DNA of 64,000 nucleotides, taken from positions 14,007 to 78,006 of the forward strand of contig JAVVDU010000008.1 in assembly GCA_032251515.1 (NCBI GenBank). Reading direction: 5' to 3'. Shown piece after piece: positions 46,685 to 59,059 of the stretch. The translations under genes and the position numbers were made by a program. The DNA comes from Gemmatimonadota bacterium. GTDB taxonomy: Bacteria; Gemmatimonadota; Gemmatimonadetes; Palauibacterales; Palauibacteraceae. The stretch's first letter is position 1. Each line of letters starts with the position of its first letter. The notes under the pieces were generated by a model. That model searched no databases. It was not told where the DNA came from and saw only the letters and a list, made by a program, of their open reading frames with translations.

Positions 46685-48298
46685 TTACTGGATCGCCGCC
46701 TCGAGAACGTACGTCGCCGGCGCCTCGTCGAAGTCGTTGATCCAGATCTGGTGCTGCCCGGCGGTCAGCTCGCACGTCGACTGCTCGGGCTGAGCGCTGG
46801 TCGCGCCGTCCGTGCACTCGAACGCCGTGACTCCAGCATCCGTGACCAGGATGTCGAGGTCGGCCCCCGTATCCCAGTCGAGGTCGATCACGATCGTGGC
46901 ATCCGCGGCCAGCTCGATCAGGTAGAAGTGATCGACCTGGTCGGCGTCCTGGAACGCGACCTTCTTCAGCGGCAGGGCCGTCAGCGGCGCCGTGCCCGGA
47001 TCGAGGAATGCCGGCGAGTCCGCCGAGCCCGACGAGGTCAGGTCGAACTCGAAGGGATCGGACAGCGCCCCCTCCCGGCCGACTGCGATCTCGTGCGTAC
47101 CGACGCCGACGAACGGCATCCAGAACACGATCTGGTTGGCGGTGCGCGACTCGACGAAGATGTCATCGAGCTGCGTCCCGTCGATGAACACCTCGTGCAC
47201 GTCCTCAAGCCCGGTGAGATCCAGGGTGACGATCTCGCCGACGAGGCCGCTGGCGGGGCCCGCGGCATCGATCGTGGCGATGCCCACGACCCGCACCGTC
47301 GCCGAGAACGGAAGGGCGCCCTCGGACGTCTGAACCGTCCCGGAGATCGTCGTGGTCCCGCCGGAGACCGGCGTCACTTCCACGGTCAGGGCGACTTCCT
47401 CGCCGAGCAACGCACGCGTGGCGGTCGCCGTGGCGATGCCGGGATCCGCAGACGACACGCTGATTCCCGTGATCTCATCGGGAACCGTGTTGAAGTTCCC
47501 CGCGGCGTCGAACACGGCGACCGTGAACTCCGACGCGACCACCGGGTTCGTCTGGTCCACGACGCCGAGATCGGTGACCGCCGCGTCATCGATCAAGAAT
47601 GACGCGCTGGCCGGCACATCGGCGACCACGGCGACCGTGCACGTCGCCTCCCGCGTCACGCGGCCGGCCGTGCCCGTGGCCTCGGTCCCGGTCCAGGTTC
47701 CCGTGATCGTCGCGGCACCGGCGAGCGTCGCCTCGAAGCCGCCGGCATCGTCCACCGCGAGCACGTCCGCGTCATCCGTCGCCCACTCCAGGTCCGTCGC
47801 CTGGTCGAACGGCGTCACGGTCTCGCCGGTGGAGCTCGTGAGCCGGGCCGTCAGGGTTCCCGTGTCGCTCGAGCGCACCTGCTCAGGGCAGGTCAGCTCT
47901 ACGCCATCGGCCACCACGATCGCATCGACCGTGGCGGAAAGCCCGCCGGACGACAGCTCGATCGTGCACGTGCCGAGAGTGTTCCCCGCGGTCACGAGAA
48001 ACAGGCCCGGTGGCTGGATCGGCACGGCCGCGGCTGGATCCGGCTGAAGCGTGACGCACTGCGGGGTCACGACCGGATCGGCGAATTCCGCGAAGGTGGG
48101 CTCGCCGGTCTCGTTCAGGGCACGCGCCGCGAGCTGCCCGCTCCGCCCCGCCGGAATGACCATCTCCGACGGATTCGTCGAGATCCGGGACGTCTGATCC
48201 GGGTCCTCGCTGATCGGGTCGTCGTTGCAGGCGGTGAGGCCGAGTGCCGCCACCGCCAGGCACGCGAGCCCGACATTTCGAACGAAGCCAACTCTCAT
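46685..48298 (-). CDS. Acidic Ig-like-repeat lipoprotein (Big_2/IPT-like modules, PPC-like C-terminal domain)
   Basis: Lipobox LTAC; WATDDADVLAVDDAG, SSADPGIATA, GTTTISGT Ig motifs; DHFY...LDWDTGADLDILV tail; GAGG SD. Confidence 0.8.
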   Translation of the reverse strand: MRVGFVRNVGLACLAVAALGLTACNDDPISEDPDQTSRISTNPSEMVIPAGRSGQLAARALNETGEPTFAEFADPVVTPQCVTLQPDPAAAVPIQPPGLFLVTAGNTLGTCTIELSSGGLSATVDAIVVADGVELTCPEQVRSSDTGTLTARLTSSTGETVTPFDQATDLEWATDDADVLAVDDAGGFEATLAGAATITGTWTGTEATGTAGRVTREATCTVAVVADVPASASFLIDDAAVTDLGVVDQTNPVVASEFTVAVFDAAGNFNTVPDEITGISVSSADPGIATATATRALLGEEVALTVEVTPVSGGTTTISGTVQTSEGALPFSATVRVVGIATIDAAGPASGLVGEIVTLDLTGLEDVHEVFIDGTQLDDIFVESRTANQIVFWMPFVGVGTHEIAVGREGALSDPFEFDLTSSGSADSPAFLDPGTAPLTALPLKKVAFQDADQVDHFYLIELAADATIVIDLDWDTGADLDILVTDAGVTAFECTDGATSAQPEQSTCELTAGQHQIWINDFDEAPATYVLEAAIQ

Positions 48299-48368
48299 GG
48301 TTTCCTCTCTTCCCGATTGTCGCCGTCCCGCGAACCGTCTCGCGGACGTGGTGCGCTGCCCGGACGGT

Positions 48369-49895
48369 TCAGCTACCGGGCCCGATCCCGAAATTCGTCG
48401 CCAGGTCCTGCAGGGCCGACGTTCCGACGCGGGCCCGCCAGTCCGCCAGCGACGTCATGTCGTTGTCCGTGGTGAAGACCAGGCGCCAGGCATCGAACTG
48501 ATTCTCCTGGATGAACAGGTAGACGTATCCCGTCTCCCTGTACTGCCAGATCTCGTACGGCGGTTCGGCGAAGCTGCCGGACCGGCTCGCGCCCCCGCCC
48601 GTCGTCGGATAGTAATTGACGATCCGGTCGTACGGCTCGCCGAACTTCAGGTAGAGCCGGCCCATGTCCGTCGTCCACGGGCCCCGCGTGTCCGTTCCGA
48701 CACGTTCGTCGTAACGGGCGCGGATCGTGGCGATCCGGTCCAGGTATTCGTCGAGAAACGAACTTCCGGGCCCCGGTGTCCGATCACGGGCGGCGAAGAA
48801 GTCGACGAGATAGCGCCGCTTGGCGTCCGGCGGAAGCGCCTCGAAGGTCCGTCGTTCGGCCTCGCTGACCAGCAAGCCGACACCCCCGAACGTGTCCTGC
48901 AGCTCTTCGTCGGACAGGGACTGGAAATAGGTGACGAGATCGGAGCCGGCCCCGGTCGGGGTCGAGCTCGGTTCGGGAGCGTCATGCACCTCGAACCCTG
49001 CCGTGCGCAACTGTGGCTCCGCGTCCGGGCTCCGGATCGTCATCGCGAACTCGTAGTCGCCCGGGGCCAGGCCCGACAGCGGCAGCCGTCCCGTGAAGGG
49101 CAGGCCGCCGGCCGGTACCATCACGTCCCGGCCGGGCGTCCGCAGCAGGGAGGAACCCGTCGCGGACCGGATCTCGGCTTCCACCGAGACCGGTCGCTCC
49201 GTTTCGCTCCCGTACAGTTCCAGGTAGTAGTAGAGTGTCGGGTCCGAATCGAGGACGACGGTACGGGCCGCCGCGCTGATGCCGAACCCACCGCGTTCGA
49301 GTGACCAGCTCCCCTCCCCGGACGCTTCGTCCAGGGCTTCCACTCGCGTCGAGAGCACGAGGTCGGAGGCGAGCGGCGGTTGCCCGAAGGCTTCCAGCGC
49401 CACCGTCTCGCGAACTCCCAGGTCCGCCGCATCCGTGGGATACGCGCGGAGCTCCACCTCGTATGTCCCGGGCCGGAGCCCGATGCGGAACGACTCGAGC
49501 AGATAGGATGCGTCGGTGCCGACGAACGCGGCAGCCCGGCCGCTGACCTCGCGGACCCAGGAATCCCGGTAGAGCGTTTCGCCCGCGGCGTCGAGCACGG
49601 CGACCTCGAACCGGTACGAACCCGTCGTACTGGCGGCGAGGATGCCGAGTGGCACGTGGACGAATCCGTCCACGAGCGTCACGTCGTCTCCCGCCCAGGT
49701 GCGGATGAGAGACGTCTCGAGCCGGGGCTCGGGTCCCGCCGCCCGTTCCCCCGCCTCCTGGCCGCGGCCGGCGGGGCCGGCCACGAGAAGGAGAACGGCG
49801 GCGAGAAGGAGCCCGTGGGCCCGCGACCGGGCAGCGGGAACGTCCTGCGGACGTCCCCCGGAGCGGGGCCCGAAACGGATCGACCGGAGGTTCAT
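48369..49895 (-). CDS. GWxTD-domain exported protein
   Basis: Signal peptide; Ig-like LxPGxY modules; ERRTFEAL..KRRYL.DFF..RD.TP, PWTTDMGRLYLKFGEP, PYEIWQY. Confidence 0.82.
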   Translation of the reverse strand: MNLRSIRFGPRSGGRPQDVPAARSRAHGLLLAAVLLLVAGPAGRGQEAGERAAGPEPRLETSLIRTWAGDDVTLVDGFVHVPLGILAASTTGSYRFEVAVLDAAGETLYRDSWVREVSGRAAAFVGTDASYLLESFRIGLRPGTYEVELRAYPTDAADLGVRETVALEAFGQPPLASDLVLSTRVEALDEASGEGSWSLERGGFGISAAARTVVLDSDPTLYYYLELYGSETERPVSVEAEIRSATGSSLLRTPGRDVMVPAGGLPFTGRLPLSGLAPGDYEFAMTIRSPDAEPQLRTAGFEVHDAPEPSSTPTGAGSDLVTYFQSLSDEELQDTFGGVGLLVSEAERRTFEALPPDAKRRYLVDFFAARDRTPGPGSSFLDEYLDRIATIRARYDERVGTDTRGPWTTDMGRLYLKFGEPYDRIVNYYPTTGGGASRSGSFAEPPYEIWQYRETGYVYLFIQENQFDAWRLVFTTDNDMTSLADWRARVGTSALQDLATNFGIGPGS

Positions 49896-58638: not shown

Positions 58639-59030
58639 GGATCAACCCTCCTCGGGCGTCAGGAGATGCGCCGACGTATGGCCGGGGATGGCGCGAAGCG
58701 GGGCATGGCCCGCGCTTCATCCGGAAGACCGGGTCGGCGGAAACCGAGAGACGGCGGTTGTGGGAAGCCCGGATGGGGCTTCCGGGAGAACGAACGAGTG
58801 CTGCTTCGATAGTGCCCTCCCCGTTCGGGGGAACCCTCCGGGCCGTCGTCCGGTTGGACCATCGGACGGCGCGATCACCGAAACCGGAGCCGCGGGCTTG
58901 CCGCCGCGTCGTGCGGCGAAAGGCCGGGGTCCCGGTGACATCGGTCCGGCACACGGAATCTATGCTTCGCCCGGCATCCCGCCACAATGCGCGGCGCGGG
59001 CCGGTCGGCCTCGTTCGATTGCGTTCGGGG

Positions 59031-59059
59031 ACGCTAGTCGCCGGGCCTCGTCGTGTCAA
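59031..59059 (-). promoter_or_regulatory. Putative sigma70 promoter of the TBDR-CTD protein-PorV operon
   Basis: Consensus -35 TTGACA (59059-59054), 17-nt spacer, -10 TAGCGT (59036-59031). Confidence 0.7.

Follow-up and report, generated by a model that had tools for sequence, protein, structure and literature searches.

[quoted passage not shown] Retention of C-terminal domains (CTDs) on PorQ and PorV barrels is a feature of the P. gingivalis attachment complex. SusC/SusD-type polysaccharide utilisation loci can encode T9SS-secreted enzymes, as in the chitin locus of F. johnsoniae. The phylum Gemmatimonadota, which is abundant in soil and sediment, is poorly understood.

Several described systems bring a barrel and an extracellular protein together. 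In Bacteroidota, type B CTD cargo has cognate PorP/SprF-like barrels, as in SprB-SprF and PG1035-PorP (PMC9143113, PMC12618676), PorQ-PorZ and PorV-PorU each make up one half of the attachment complex in P. gingivalis (PMC5562754, PMC10947112, PMC12365241), and in the BamG-BamH pair of the Bacteroidota BAM machinery a FadL/PorV-like barrel of 14 strands uses its extracellular loops to bind an extracellular protein (PMC12578637).

The locus described here lies in 64,000 nucleotides of a Gemmatimonadota contig (the window), from a source genome that is 90% complete and whose class is referred to below as the window class. It joins a predicted TonB-dependent receptor, a giant protein with a T9SS-type tail and a dedicated PorV-like barrel, a combination for which we found no described precedent in the literature. 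Our main reading, to which we assign a probability of roughly 55%, is that the giant is a surface protein that leaves the cell via SprA and then stays non-covalently attached to its own PorV paralogue, next to the TonB-dependent importer.

Organisation and conservation of the cassette

The cassette (46685-58638) consists of five co-directional open reading frames on the minus strand with coding-type GC3 (0.85-0.96), preceded by a promoter-like motif:

59059-59031, minus strand: promoter-like TTGACA-N17-TAGCGT, about 390 nt 5' of the receptor ATG
55270-58638, minus strand: predicted TonB-dependent receptor, 1122 aa
51146-55177, minus strand: giant protein, 1343 aa, predicted to be secreted, with a T9SS-type CTD
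49905-51068, minus strand: PorV/PorQ-family outer-membrane barrel, 387 aa
48369-49895, minus strand: GWxTD protein, 508 aa, domain assigned by TIGR04514
46685-48298, minus strand: lipoprotein, 537 aa, acidic, Thr/Ala-rich, with internal repeats

A first-pass annotation made from the letters of this DNA had described five co-directional genes with short spacers, and from the receptor to the lipoprotein these spacers measure 92, 77, 9 and 70 nt. It had also called the genes less GC-extreme than their flanks, which agrees with a GC content of 0.681 against 0.731 and 0.739, and uniformly acidic, which holds for all five proteins (pI 4.05-4.68); the Asn/Thr/Phe richness that it ascribed to all of them is clear in the first three only. 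Its promoter fared less well, as the TAGCGT -10 element matches at 3 of 6 positions and a promoter scan of 45800-59300 made zero calls. An Rfam search of the leader (58500-59250) returned zero family matches. Signal peptides and the lipobox were assigned by eye from the translations.

The comparative data place this locus in a cassette family of the phylum Gemmatimonadota. A synteny survey of the kind envisaged in the first pass covered 20 loci in 19 genomes of the window class, and 18 of these loci preserve the order receptor-giant-PorV-GWxTD; the receptor precedes the giant in 19 of the 20 and the GWxTD gene follows the barrel in 18, and the two halves of the giant are 36-50% identical across loci from this class. 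The giant and barrel genes are adjacent in every locus examined. The sister-class genome G002 holds five complete receptor-giant-PorV triads, with additional pairs of giant and PorV genes where contigs or loci end. FastTree trees of the receptor, the giant and the barrel recover the same splits among the five G002 paralogues and three copies from the window class, which means that the three genes of the triad duplicate together. In two sister-class genomes, exbB-exbD-exbD-tonB or exbB-exbD-tonB stands directly upstream of triads, and this, together with the synteny and the co-duplication, supports the proposed link of the barrel and the CTD protein to the receptor. No cassette was found outside Gemmatimonadota: one phylum-crossing scan returned only records labelled Gemmatimonadota or unlabelled, and gave no evidence of the similar triplets that the first pass thought might exist in other FCB phyla.

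The receptor has an N-terminal CarboxypepD_reg domain (60.9 bits, Pfam) and a Plug (32.3 bits against a Pfam cut-off of 23.9). A TonB-dependent receptor is expected to combine a TonB box with a Plug that precedes a 22-strand barrel; the window's protein has no Pfam barrel match itself, and its sister-class orthologue L072 matches PF00593 with 75.9 bits. The best NCBIfam match of the receptor by E-value is an S-layer glycoprotein model, over the CarboxypepD_reg region only. It was rejected as a SusC/RagA protein, scoring 37 bits on TIGR04056, in the N-terminal region only, against a cut-off of 368. SusD families gave zero matches among the five cassette proteins, in agreement with the earlier observation that no SusD-like gene follows the receptor, and PF07980 (SusD) gave zero matches in the 90% complete source genome. 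A classical SusC and SusD pair is thus rejected on the sub-threshold SusC score and the lack of an adjacent SusD-family lipoprotein. The cassette resembles SusC/SusD loci in placing a CarboxypepD_reg TonB-dependent receptor beside a partner that we infer to be surface-exposed, and in occurring as several paralogous copies per genome, but it has no SusD, and the place of a lipoprotein lid is taken by a cargo of T9SS type that has a barrel of its own. The description "SusD-independent" therefore suits the cassette but not the lineage: SusD genes were found in 93 of 132 window-class genomes, so the cassette is an extra system and not the lineage's substitute for SusD.

At the other end of the cassette, the GWxTD call stands, with TIGR04514 scoring 47.3 bits against a cut-off of 28 over aa 341-453 (nt 48537-48875, minus strand); the Pfam GWxTD model (PF20094) gave no match on this protein. 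The lipoprotein carries a lipobox, L-T-A-C at aa 21-24 (by eye), and matched no Pfam or NCBIfam family, leaving the Ig fold once assigned to it unconfirmed. Its homologues, identified as transitive phmmer matches, vary in length and occupy the same place in 15 of 18 loci.

The giant protein and its barrel

The giant matched no Pfam family, searches for catalytic or binding families in it came back empty, and the FlgD_Ig domain for which it was to be checked is likewise unconfirmed. Among its 642 homologues, all that are named are "hypothetical", and the family at 50% identity comprises 663 representatives. The structural models are of middling confidence (pLDDT 62.6 and 66.7). Three regions can be distinguished:

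53828-55015, minus strand: N-terminal beta-supersandwich domain, about aa 55-450, galactose-mutarotase-like fold in the model
52838-53506, minus strand: FN3-like domain, about aa 558-780, with a low-confidence insertion of about 100 aa
51149-51445, minus strand: T9SS-type CTD, about aa 1245-1343

The AF2 model of the supersandwich domain (pLDDT 62.6, pTM 0.70) aligns over 239 residues with the N-domain of 9ju0 (VIA Z 15.2, rmsd 3.9 A) and also with the N-domains of GH116, GH15 and GH94 (VIA Z 14.0-14.6), with a Foldseek E of 5e-5. The same fold occurs in proteins unrelated to carbohydrates, such as the periplasmic domain of YidC, so it is a weak guide to the substrate. The FN3-like domain matches many FN3 domains (VIA Z 9.3-10.6) over model residues 34-256, within which the insertion, residues 111-209, has pLDDT below 50.

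The T9SS-type CTD reported in the first pass is borderline on the type A sorting-domain profile TIGR04183, whose cut-off is 23 bits: the protein searched by itself scored 20.2, and the scan of the whole genome gave 23.1. A type A sorting domain is also expected to fold as an Ig-like beta-sandwich, and the modelled fold of the tail is compatible with the assignment. The best-scoring tail model is the PorZ C-terminus, NF052228 (E 2.4e-8), and the modelled CTD aligns over 92 residues with the CTD of PorZ (VIA Z 12.9, rmsd 2.4 A) and also with that of PorU (VIA Z 10.8). Of 51 full-length sequences, among them the window's own, 49 retain the C-terminal motif, and the source genome has only two TIGR04183-type tails.

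The barrel belongs to the PorV/PorQ family, matching NF033709 with 127.4 bits against a cut-off of 90, over profile positions 4-324 of 326 (125.4 bits in the genome scan). It was rejected as PorV proper (NF033710, 49.9 bits, below 250), as PorQ proper (NF033711, 75.9 bits, the highest of the equivalog models, below 220) and as FadL/Toluene_X (PF03349, 25.5 bits, below 29.7, over 50 residues only). The sole match of the barrel family profile among PDB sequences is PorV (6h3i_F, E 1.5e-10), and the earlier description of a PorV-like barrel is upheld, the protein grouping with PorV and not with FadL. In the tree, 20 rows of cassette barrels cluster together (support 99/99), with the cassette barrels of G002 as their sister group, and the PorU-linked PorVs group apart (96/90) together with the source genome's second PorV gene, located on contig C2 between era and rnr. 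The cassette barrel is a paralogue distinct from canonical PorV.

Complex modelling predicts that the giant's CTD binds its own barrel. The ipSAE was 0.91, 0.91 and 0.90 in three runs against 0.04 for the best control. Of 80 solved complexes 58 attain the mark used, whereas among 110 mismatched pairs only 2 do so. Partner pLDDT did not fall below 78, the runs had 80% or more of their contacts in common, and the predicted interface includes residues invariant in both families. As solved SprA-PorV-cargo structures exist, this pass may mirror known PorV-CTD contacts and not a dedicated stable anchor. The CTD and PorV complex prediction that the first-pass annotation had outlined exceeds its controls, and the annotation's view of the CTD protein and the barrel as a cognate pair gains from their adjacency, their joint duplication, the separate clade and the docking result.

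The pair resembles SprB-SprF and PG1035-PorP in that the cargo gene is linked to its own barrel, which binds the cargo or is needed for it, in an anchoring that would be non-covalent and PorU-independent, and in the occurrence of several pairs per genome. Unlike that type, however, its barrel is of the PorV/PorQ family (NF033709) and not PorP/SprF, the tail of its giant resembles the CTDs of type A cargo, PorZ and PorU in both sequence and model, and the pair sits with a TonB-dependent receptor, in the phylum Gemmatimonadota. As in PorQ-PorZ and PorV-PorU, a CTD-bearing surface protein is predicted to be held by a PorV-family barrel, and the tail has the PorZ C-terminus as its best-scoring model, just as PorQ is the equivalog on which the barrel reaches its highest score. 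The cassette barrel nevertheless falls below both the PorQ and PorV equivalog cut-offs, and the giant lacks the PorZ body: PorZ is its top Foldseek match, but the alignment is confined to those 92 residues, and the PorU counterpart lies within the CTD. The window class is also without PorU, unlike the P. gingivalis complex, and no role in A-LPS attachment is implied. BamG-BamH is a further case of a PorV-like barrel binding an extracellular protein, as predicted for the cassette; the cassette barrel gave no BamG match at E <= 0.01, and its context is a receptor cassette and not BAM.

A probable reduced secretion system and the proposed role of the barrel

SprA is present in the source genome as a 2138-aa ORF on contig C3, which is not the cassette contig; its summed score is 474 bits, where 200 would suffice. 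Comparison of the SprA and giant matches among genomes G001-G150 places SprA in all 44 that have a strong giant match (43 of 43 without the unpublished G057). Giant matches occur in none of the 20 listed SprA-negative genomes, and 24 genomes have SprA on the strand of the cassette, at a distance of 10-25 kb from it. PorU had no match in the source genome and no orthologue in any of the 132 window-class genomes, four of which gave weak matches at the CTD end of the model only; the sister classes, which serve as the positive control, have it in 19 of 19 genomes (18 above the cut-off). Of the genes whose search in the source genome had been suggested, sprA was recovered and porU was not. GldM matched in none of the 151 genomes of the phylum and GldK, at 23 bits in the source genome, was above its cut-off in none of the 151, both in searches without a positive control. 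The presence of SprA and the absence of PorU from the class are consistent with a reduced T9SS, and the minimal T9SS-derived system suggested by the first-pass annotation is to that extent supported, although its interpretation as a whole holds in part only.

Under our main reading, the triad of receptor, ~1,300-aa protein and PorV-family barrel is the co-inherited core. The giant would be carried across the inner membrane by Sec and routed by its T9SS-type CTD through the SprA translocon. As the window class has no PorU sortase, the CTD would not be swapped for a lipid anchor but would remain on the extracellular face of the cassette barrel, making the barrel a dedicated surface anchor. Next to the receptor, the supersandwich, FN3 and beta-rich domains of the giant may catch a macromolecular substrate, possibly a glycan, which the TonB-powered receptor would take in. 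In the window class, the GWxTD-domain protein and the fast-evolving repeat lipoprotein may have been added as accessory parts. A more ambitious version, which we put forward tentatively and consider doubtful, is that these are modular uptake machines specific to Gemmatimonadota, in which the giant replaces the SusD lid or surface glycan-binding protein and is permanently fixed on a cargo-specific PorV paralogue in a receptor-cargo-barrel complex, assembled by a T9SS that consists of SprA and PorV-family barrels and lacks the sortase and perhaps the PorKLMN motor as well, and with GWxTD proteins as an unrecognised PorV-associated T9SS component.

It is also conceivable, though unlikely, that the barrel is a transient shuttle like canonical PorV, which takes the giant at SprA and releases it, so that the giant is free or held by the GWxTD protein or lipoprotein and the gene pairing reflects dosage or co-regulation. 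All type A CTDs are reported to be recognised by PorV (PMC12618676), and the predicted interface may simply copy the PorV-CTD mode of the solved structures. In the near-complete genome G198 the cassette barrel is the sole PorV-family match, which is equally compatible with an anchor, and in G191 both strong PorV-family matches (138.9 bits each) are cassette-type. A shuttle is hard to square, however, with G002, which has at least five separate cassette barrels in addition to a PorU-linked canonical PorV, with the co-divergence of barrel and cargo, and with a class that has no sortase to take over anchoring.

That the product of the cassette is a surface structure (a coat, an adhesin or an S-layer-like array, for instance), with the receptor-like barrel as a platform or engaged in unrelated import, seems to us quite improbable: the giant is large, acidic and FN3/beta-rich with no catalytic or binding family, and the S-layer model heads the receptor's NCBIfam matches, but the receptor has a Plug, its orthologue L072 matches a TonB-dependent barrel, exbBD-tonB lies directly upstream in two sister-class loci, and several paralogous cassettes per genome are what nutrient-uptake loci show. 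Very improbable, in our estimate, is a pair that works without any T9SS, in which a CTD-like domain attaches to the barrel from the periplasmic side, or the giant reaches the surface with the help of the barrel itself, and SprA is irrelevant. The undetected motor genes (GldM and GldK, with no positive control), the scarcity of TIGR04183-type tails in the source genome and the location of its SprA on a different contig would all fit such a pair; against it stand the presence of SprA in every strong-giant genome of the overlapping sample, the lack of giant matches in the listed SprA-negative genomes, the proximity of SprA to the cassette in 24 genomes, and a CTD fold that matches bona fide T9SS CTDs.

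The cassette places the uncharacterised GWxTD domain in a genomic context for the first time. If our main reading is true, PorV-family barrels can become cargo-specific anchors, as PorP/SprF barrels are for type B cargo, and SprA-based export can run without a sortase, with a possible lack of the motor being testable in Gemmatimonadota genomes. It would further imply that TonB-dependent uptake may recruit a secreted partner in place of a SusD lipoprotein and, as a single genome can carry five or even more of them, such cassettes may supply much of the nutrient-capture repertoire of this phylum.

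Gene content of the cassette

The window (G+C ~72%) carries a run of five minus-strand genes between tyrS and folK, laid out as follows.

Features of the cassette and its flanks
59117-60622, minus strand: tyrS, flanking the five-gene run
59059-59031, minus strand: TTGACA-N17-TAGCGT, ~390 nt upstream of the receptor ATG, with a poor -10 element
55270-58638, minus strand: receptor, open reading frame (ORF) with coding-type codon bias
51146-55177, minus strand: giant protein, ORF with coding-type codon bias
49905-51068, minus strand: barrel, ORF with coding-type codon bias
48369-49895, minus strand: GWxTD protein, ORF with coding-type codon bias
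46685-48298, minus strand: lipoprotein, ORF with coding-type codon bias
45992-46537, minus strand: folK (HPPK), flanking the run at its other side

The first-pass annotation had described these genes as co-directional, closely spaced, acidic in their products and less GC-extreme than their flanks, and this description is accurate: the intergenic spacers from receptor to lipoprotein are 92, 77, 9 and 70 nt, all five proteins have a pI of 4.05-4.68, and the module has a GC content of 0.681 vs 0.731 upstream and 0.739 downstream, with a GC3 of 0.85-0.96 across its ORFs. Hydrophobic N-termini and a lipobox can be read by eye in the module proteins. The promoter assigned to the run is present as a motif, but its -10 element is poor and a consensus scan of 45800-59300 called no promoters, which led us to reject a strong sigma-70 promoter for the module. 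Internal terminators were also rejected, with 4 terminator-like sites against 5.1 expected from shuffles, as was a riboswitch in the ~390-nt leader, where there was no Rfam match at E <= 1.

The receptor has the Pfam domains CarboxypepD_reg (60.9 bits) and Plug (32.3 bits), and its orthologue in a sister class matches the TonB-dependent barrel Pfam model. Its identification as SusC/RagA was rejected (37 bits vs a cut-off of 368), and domain searches of the module proteins led us to reject a SusC/SusD PUL as well. The barrel passes the PorV/PorQ family model (127.4 bits, cut-off 90) and lies under the cut-offs of the orthologue models for PorV (49.9 bits) and PorQ (75.9 bits), it fails the Pfam FadL model (25.5 vs a cut-off of 29.7), and the only PDB sequence matched by a profile of 20 orthologous barrels is Flavobacterium johnsoniae PorV (E 1.5e-10), so the original view of this protein as PorV-like rather than FadL-like holds. 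The GWxTD call on the fourth gene likewise stands, with 47.3 bits on TIGR04514. No Pfam family was found on the giant or the lipoprotein, and PDB sequence searches with the GWxTD protein, the lipoprotein and both halves of the giant returned nothing useful.

Elsewhere in the window (7151-12586, plus strand), a second CarboxypepD_reg TonB-dependent receptor of 1187 aa (OMP_b-brl_4, 213 bits) is encoded immediately upstream of an M1-family peptidase of 623 aa, and the two may form a receptor-plus-enzyme pair for peptide uptake.

The proposal that the giant ends in a T9SS-type C-terminal domain (CTD) was supported by predicted structure and by homology, with a borderline score on the sorting-domain model. 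Its last ~80 residues match the C-terminus of PorZ (E 2.4e-8), and in model superpositions its CTD fits that of PorZ (Z 12.9, rmsd 2.4 Å, 92 aligned, 25% identity) and that of PorU (Z 10.8); on the type A sorting-domain model (TIGR04183, cut-off 23 bits), the tail scores 20.2 and 23.1. In AlphaFold models built from 20-row alignments, residues 45-535 are predicted to form a beta-supersandwich (pLDDT 62.6, pTM 0.70) resembling the N-terminal domains of GH15, GH94 and GH116 enzymes and galactose mutarotases (vs 9ju0: VIA Z 15.2, rmsd 3.9 Å, 239 aligned), a fold shared with proteins unrelated to carbohydrates, e.g., the YidC periplasmic domain (Z ~11), and residues 525-1343 (pLDDT 66.7, pTM 0.57) include a predicted FN3 domain. 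There are 642 homologues of the giant among the scored candidates, every named one a 'hypothetical protein', and their labels are Gemmatimonadota or Longimicrobiales apart from one partial protein (P0029, 62% identity) labeled as belonging to the gammaproteobacterial family Woeseiaceae, probably through a binning error. An exhaustive search with residues 61-1260 gave 663 representatives at 50% identity; lysine makes up <= 3.2% in all 50 full-length representatives printed of these 663, a composition that does not suggest low-GC phyla. Within the window genome, phmmer detected no paralogue of either the giant or its CTD.

Conservation and co-duplication

Matches to the giant at E <= 1e-5 occur in 125 of 301 genomes searched from the phylum, and the distribution is patchy (76/125 genomes in family f3, 1/23 in the window's own family). 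The module had been put forward with conservation of its gene order as a point to be settled, and 18 of 20 loci, retrieved from 19 genomes in the class of the window, keep the order receptor-giant-PorV-GWxTD, the two exceptions being a contig edge after the barrel and a second copy in genome G191 with giant and barrel only. Of these 18 loci, 15 have a fifth gene homologous to the window lipoprotein, as judged by transitive phmmer links; it is co-directional and encodes 250-854 aa with variable internal repeats. The second G191 copy (C1:1158800-1174800) lies ~58 kb from the full cassette at 1100000-1116000, its barrel has an identical score, and neither a receptor nor a GWxTD gene was detected next to the pair; it looks like a recent partial duplication.

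In the best 80 of 289 confirmed loci from one peptide-pattern contig scan, all labels are of Gemmatimonadota type (Gemmatimonadota, Gemmatimonadales, Gemmatimonadaceae, Gemmatimonadetes), 'Candidatus Glassbacteria' or 'uncultured bacterium'; a protein atlas provides leads in Ignavibacteriota (0.98) and Fidelibacterota (0.90) clusters. Sister classes of the phylum show an expansion of the giant's N-domain family, a single genome giving as many as 22 matches. Five complete triads of receptor, giant and barrel, none with the GWxTD gene, occur in one sister-class genome, G002, along with more giant-barrel pairs at contig or locus edges. When these five paralogues and three window-class copies were placed in trees, the receptor, giant and barrel trees all returned the same splits ({L071, L077}, then with L072; {L226, L227}; {L041, L046}, then with the window), so duplication and divergence have affected the three genes jointly. 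Genes of the order exbB-exbD-(exbD)-tonB lie upstream of two sister-class triads. In one sister-class triad (G006:C21), the receptor is separated from exbB-exbD-tonB by a Glu/Leu/Phe/Val dehydrogenase gene (L078:4520-5803), a faint hint of amino-acid or peptide substrates.

A maximum-likelihood tree of 41 PorV-family proteins, midpoint-rooted only and with long branches on several solo rows, marks the cassette barrel as a dedicated paralogue of PorV. The 20 window-class cassette barrels form one clade (support 99/99) to which seven G002 cassette barrels are sister, and the PorU-linked PorVs of sister classes are placed elsewhere (96/90) with 'solo' PorVs, among them the second PorV gene of the window genome, located on contig C2 between era and rnr. 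G198 (3 contigs, 99% complete) has no PorV-family match at E <= 1e-5 other than the cassette barrel, and a 2020-aa ORF ~15 kb away is probably sprA. At G059:C3:409382-413344, a different CTD-bearing protein that matches the giant in its tail only has its own PorV-family gene directly downstream (132 bits on the cassette-barrel HMM), and cargo-barrel pairing may extend past this giant family.

GWxTD domains are found in 40 of 41 genomes sampled, at 1-11 copies. A second GWxTD protein of the window genome (612 aa) is encoded directly after another CarboxypepD_reg/Plug receptor, at a locus without giant or PorV gene:

Contig C5, 64183-69082, minus strand: receptor-GWxTD pair

Tandem GWxTD-like ORFs also occur on contigs C11 and C53 of this genome. 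At all five loci retrieved from sister family f10 (L193-L197), porU, porV and the gene for a ~790-aa GWxTD protein follow on one strand, and the one such protein scanned (L193) also has TPR repeats. An ORF of ~320-350 aa with no assigned family lies between porV and the GWxTD gene; it fills the gap in 2/5 loci, and further genes are present in 3/5, including TRAP transporter genes in the one checked. The gene order in f10 hints that GWxTD proteins are part of the T9SS neighborhood. What recurs beside GWxTD genes, then, are PorV-family barrels and TonB-dependent receptors. No mention of the GWxTD domain was found in the literature searched.

Secretion system and predicted CTD-barrel docking

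The window genome (2.5 Mb, 90 contigs, 90% complete) encodes a 2138-aa SprA and two PorV-family proteins, and gave no match to PorU. TIGR04183-type tails were found on only two proteins, the giant and, as a candidate, an S8 subtilase on contig C4 (L162:2152-5187, plus strand) whose C-terminus is FlgD_ig-like (TIGR04183 19.2 bits, FlgD_ig 24.7 bits). Among 151 genomes searched, PorU orthologues occur in 19/19 sister-class genomes (18 exceed the cut-off) vs 0/132 in the window's class, where 4/132 have weak matches to the CTD end of the model; this split by class is clean and has an internal positive control. SusD_RagB shows the reverse (0/19 vs 93/132), so that many relatives have SusD systems alongside the cassette.

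SprA was found in 121 of the 151 genomes. It is present in all 44 genomes (G001-G150) with a giant match at E <= 1e-60 (43/43 without the unpublished G057), and the 20 SprA-negative genomes listed are all without a giant match, counts to which no formal test was applied, as related genomes are not independent. The distance between sprA and the giant is 10-25 kb in 24 genomes, most of them in family f3 (e.g., G059:C3, G046:C2 and G109:C6), with both genes on one contig and strand. We do not accept an operon of sprA and the cassette, since ctaA, an amino-acid permease gene and lptF/G intervene in the two genomes examined. The window genome lacks this proximity; its sprA is on contig C3, where it adjoins comEA-pilB-pilT-pilC. 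GldM had 0 matches in 151 genomes in a search with no positive control, uninformative on absence of the motor, and GldK was below cut-off in all 151, which does not establish such absence either.

Docking of the CTD on its co-encoded barrel, as envisaged in the first-pass annotation, is supported by complex prediction. With the mature barrel and the last 104 residues of the giant, each with its alignment, ipSAE was 0.91, 0.91 and 0.90 vs 0.04 for the best control, with partner pLDDT of at least 78 and contact agreement of at least 80%, a mark reached by 58/80 solved complexes and 2/110 mismatched pairs and roughly valid with our own alignments. The predicted interface includes family-invariant residues of the barrel (N17, G21, E26, F27, F104-F106, Q109, Y125, V127) and of the tail (H721-P726, R754-Y756, Q787, V789, S791-V793, F795). 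As SprA-PorV structures are present in the PDB, this result shows likeness to a known binding mode, and is proof neither of binding by the window copy nor of permanence.

Proposed function of the cassette family

Each ingredient of the cassette has a precedent, in the cognate shuttles of type B cargo (SprF/PorP), PorQ-PorZ, BamG-BamH (PMC12578637) and SusCD loci. The literature searched gave no account of private PorV paralogues serving type-A-like cargo within multi-copy receptor cassettes, nor of a class that has SprA and lacks PorU, and the cassette itself was not found described there.

Judged from two precedents, PorQ-PorZ and type B cargo with SprF/PorP, and from the docking model and the lack of PorU, the giant would be exported through SprA, retained on its cognate barrel by an uncleaved CTD, and would there capture substrate for TonB-dependent import. 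There are three main rivals. The barrel may be a shuttle only, for which a docking model that may echo known PorV-CTD contacts leaves room; the lack of PorU in the window's class instead favors retention. The cassette may build a surface structure, against which stand the Plug domain of the receptor and the TonB-system genes preceding two triads. Finally, the giant-barrel pair may act independently of the T9SS, as the mere two TIGR04183-type tails and the sprA on another contig of the window genome might suggest; the occurrence of SprA in all 44 sampled genomes with a strong giant match argues for SprA export. We consider the whole chain of SprA export, retention and capture for import slightly better than an even bet. 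The cassette family itself is far more secure: we place at well over 90% the probability that the module belongs to a family of outer-membrane cassettes, conserved and co-evolving in Gemmatimonadota, whose core is a receptor, a T9SS-type cargo and a cargo-specific PorV paralogue.
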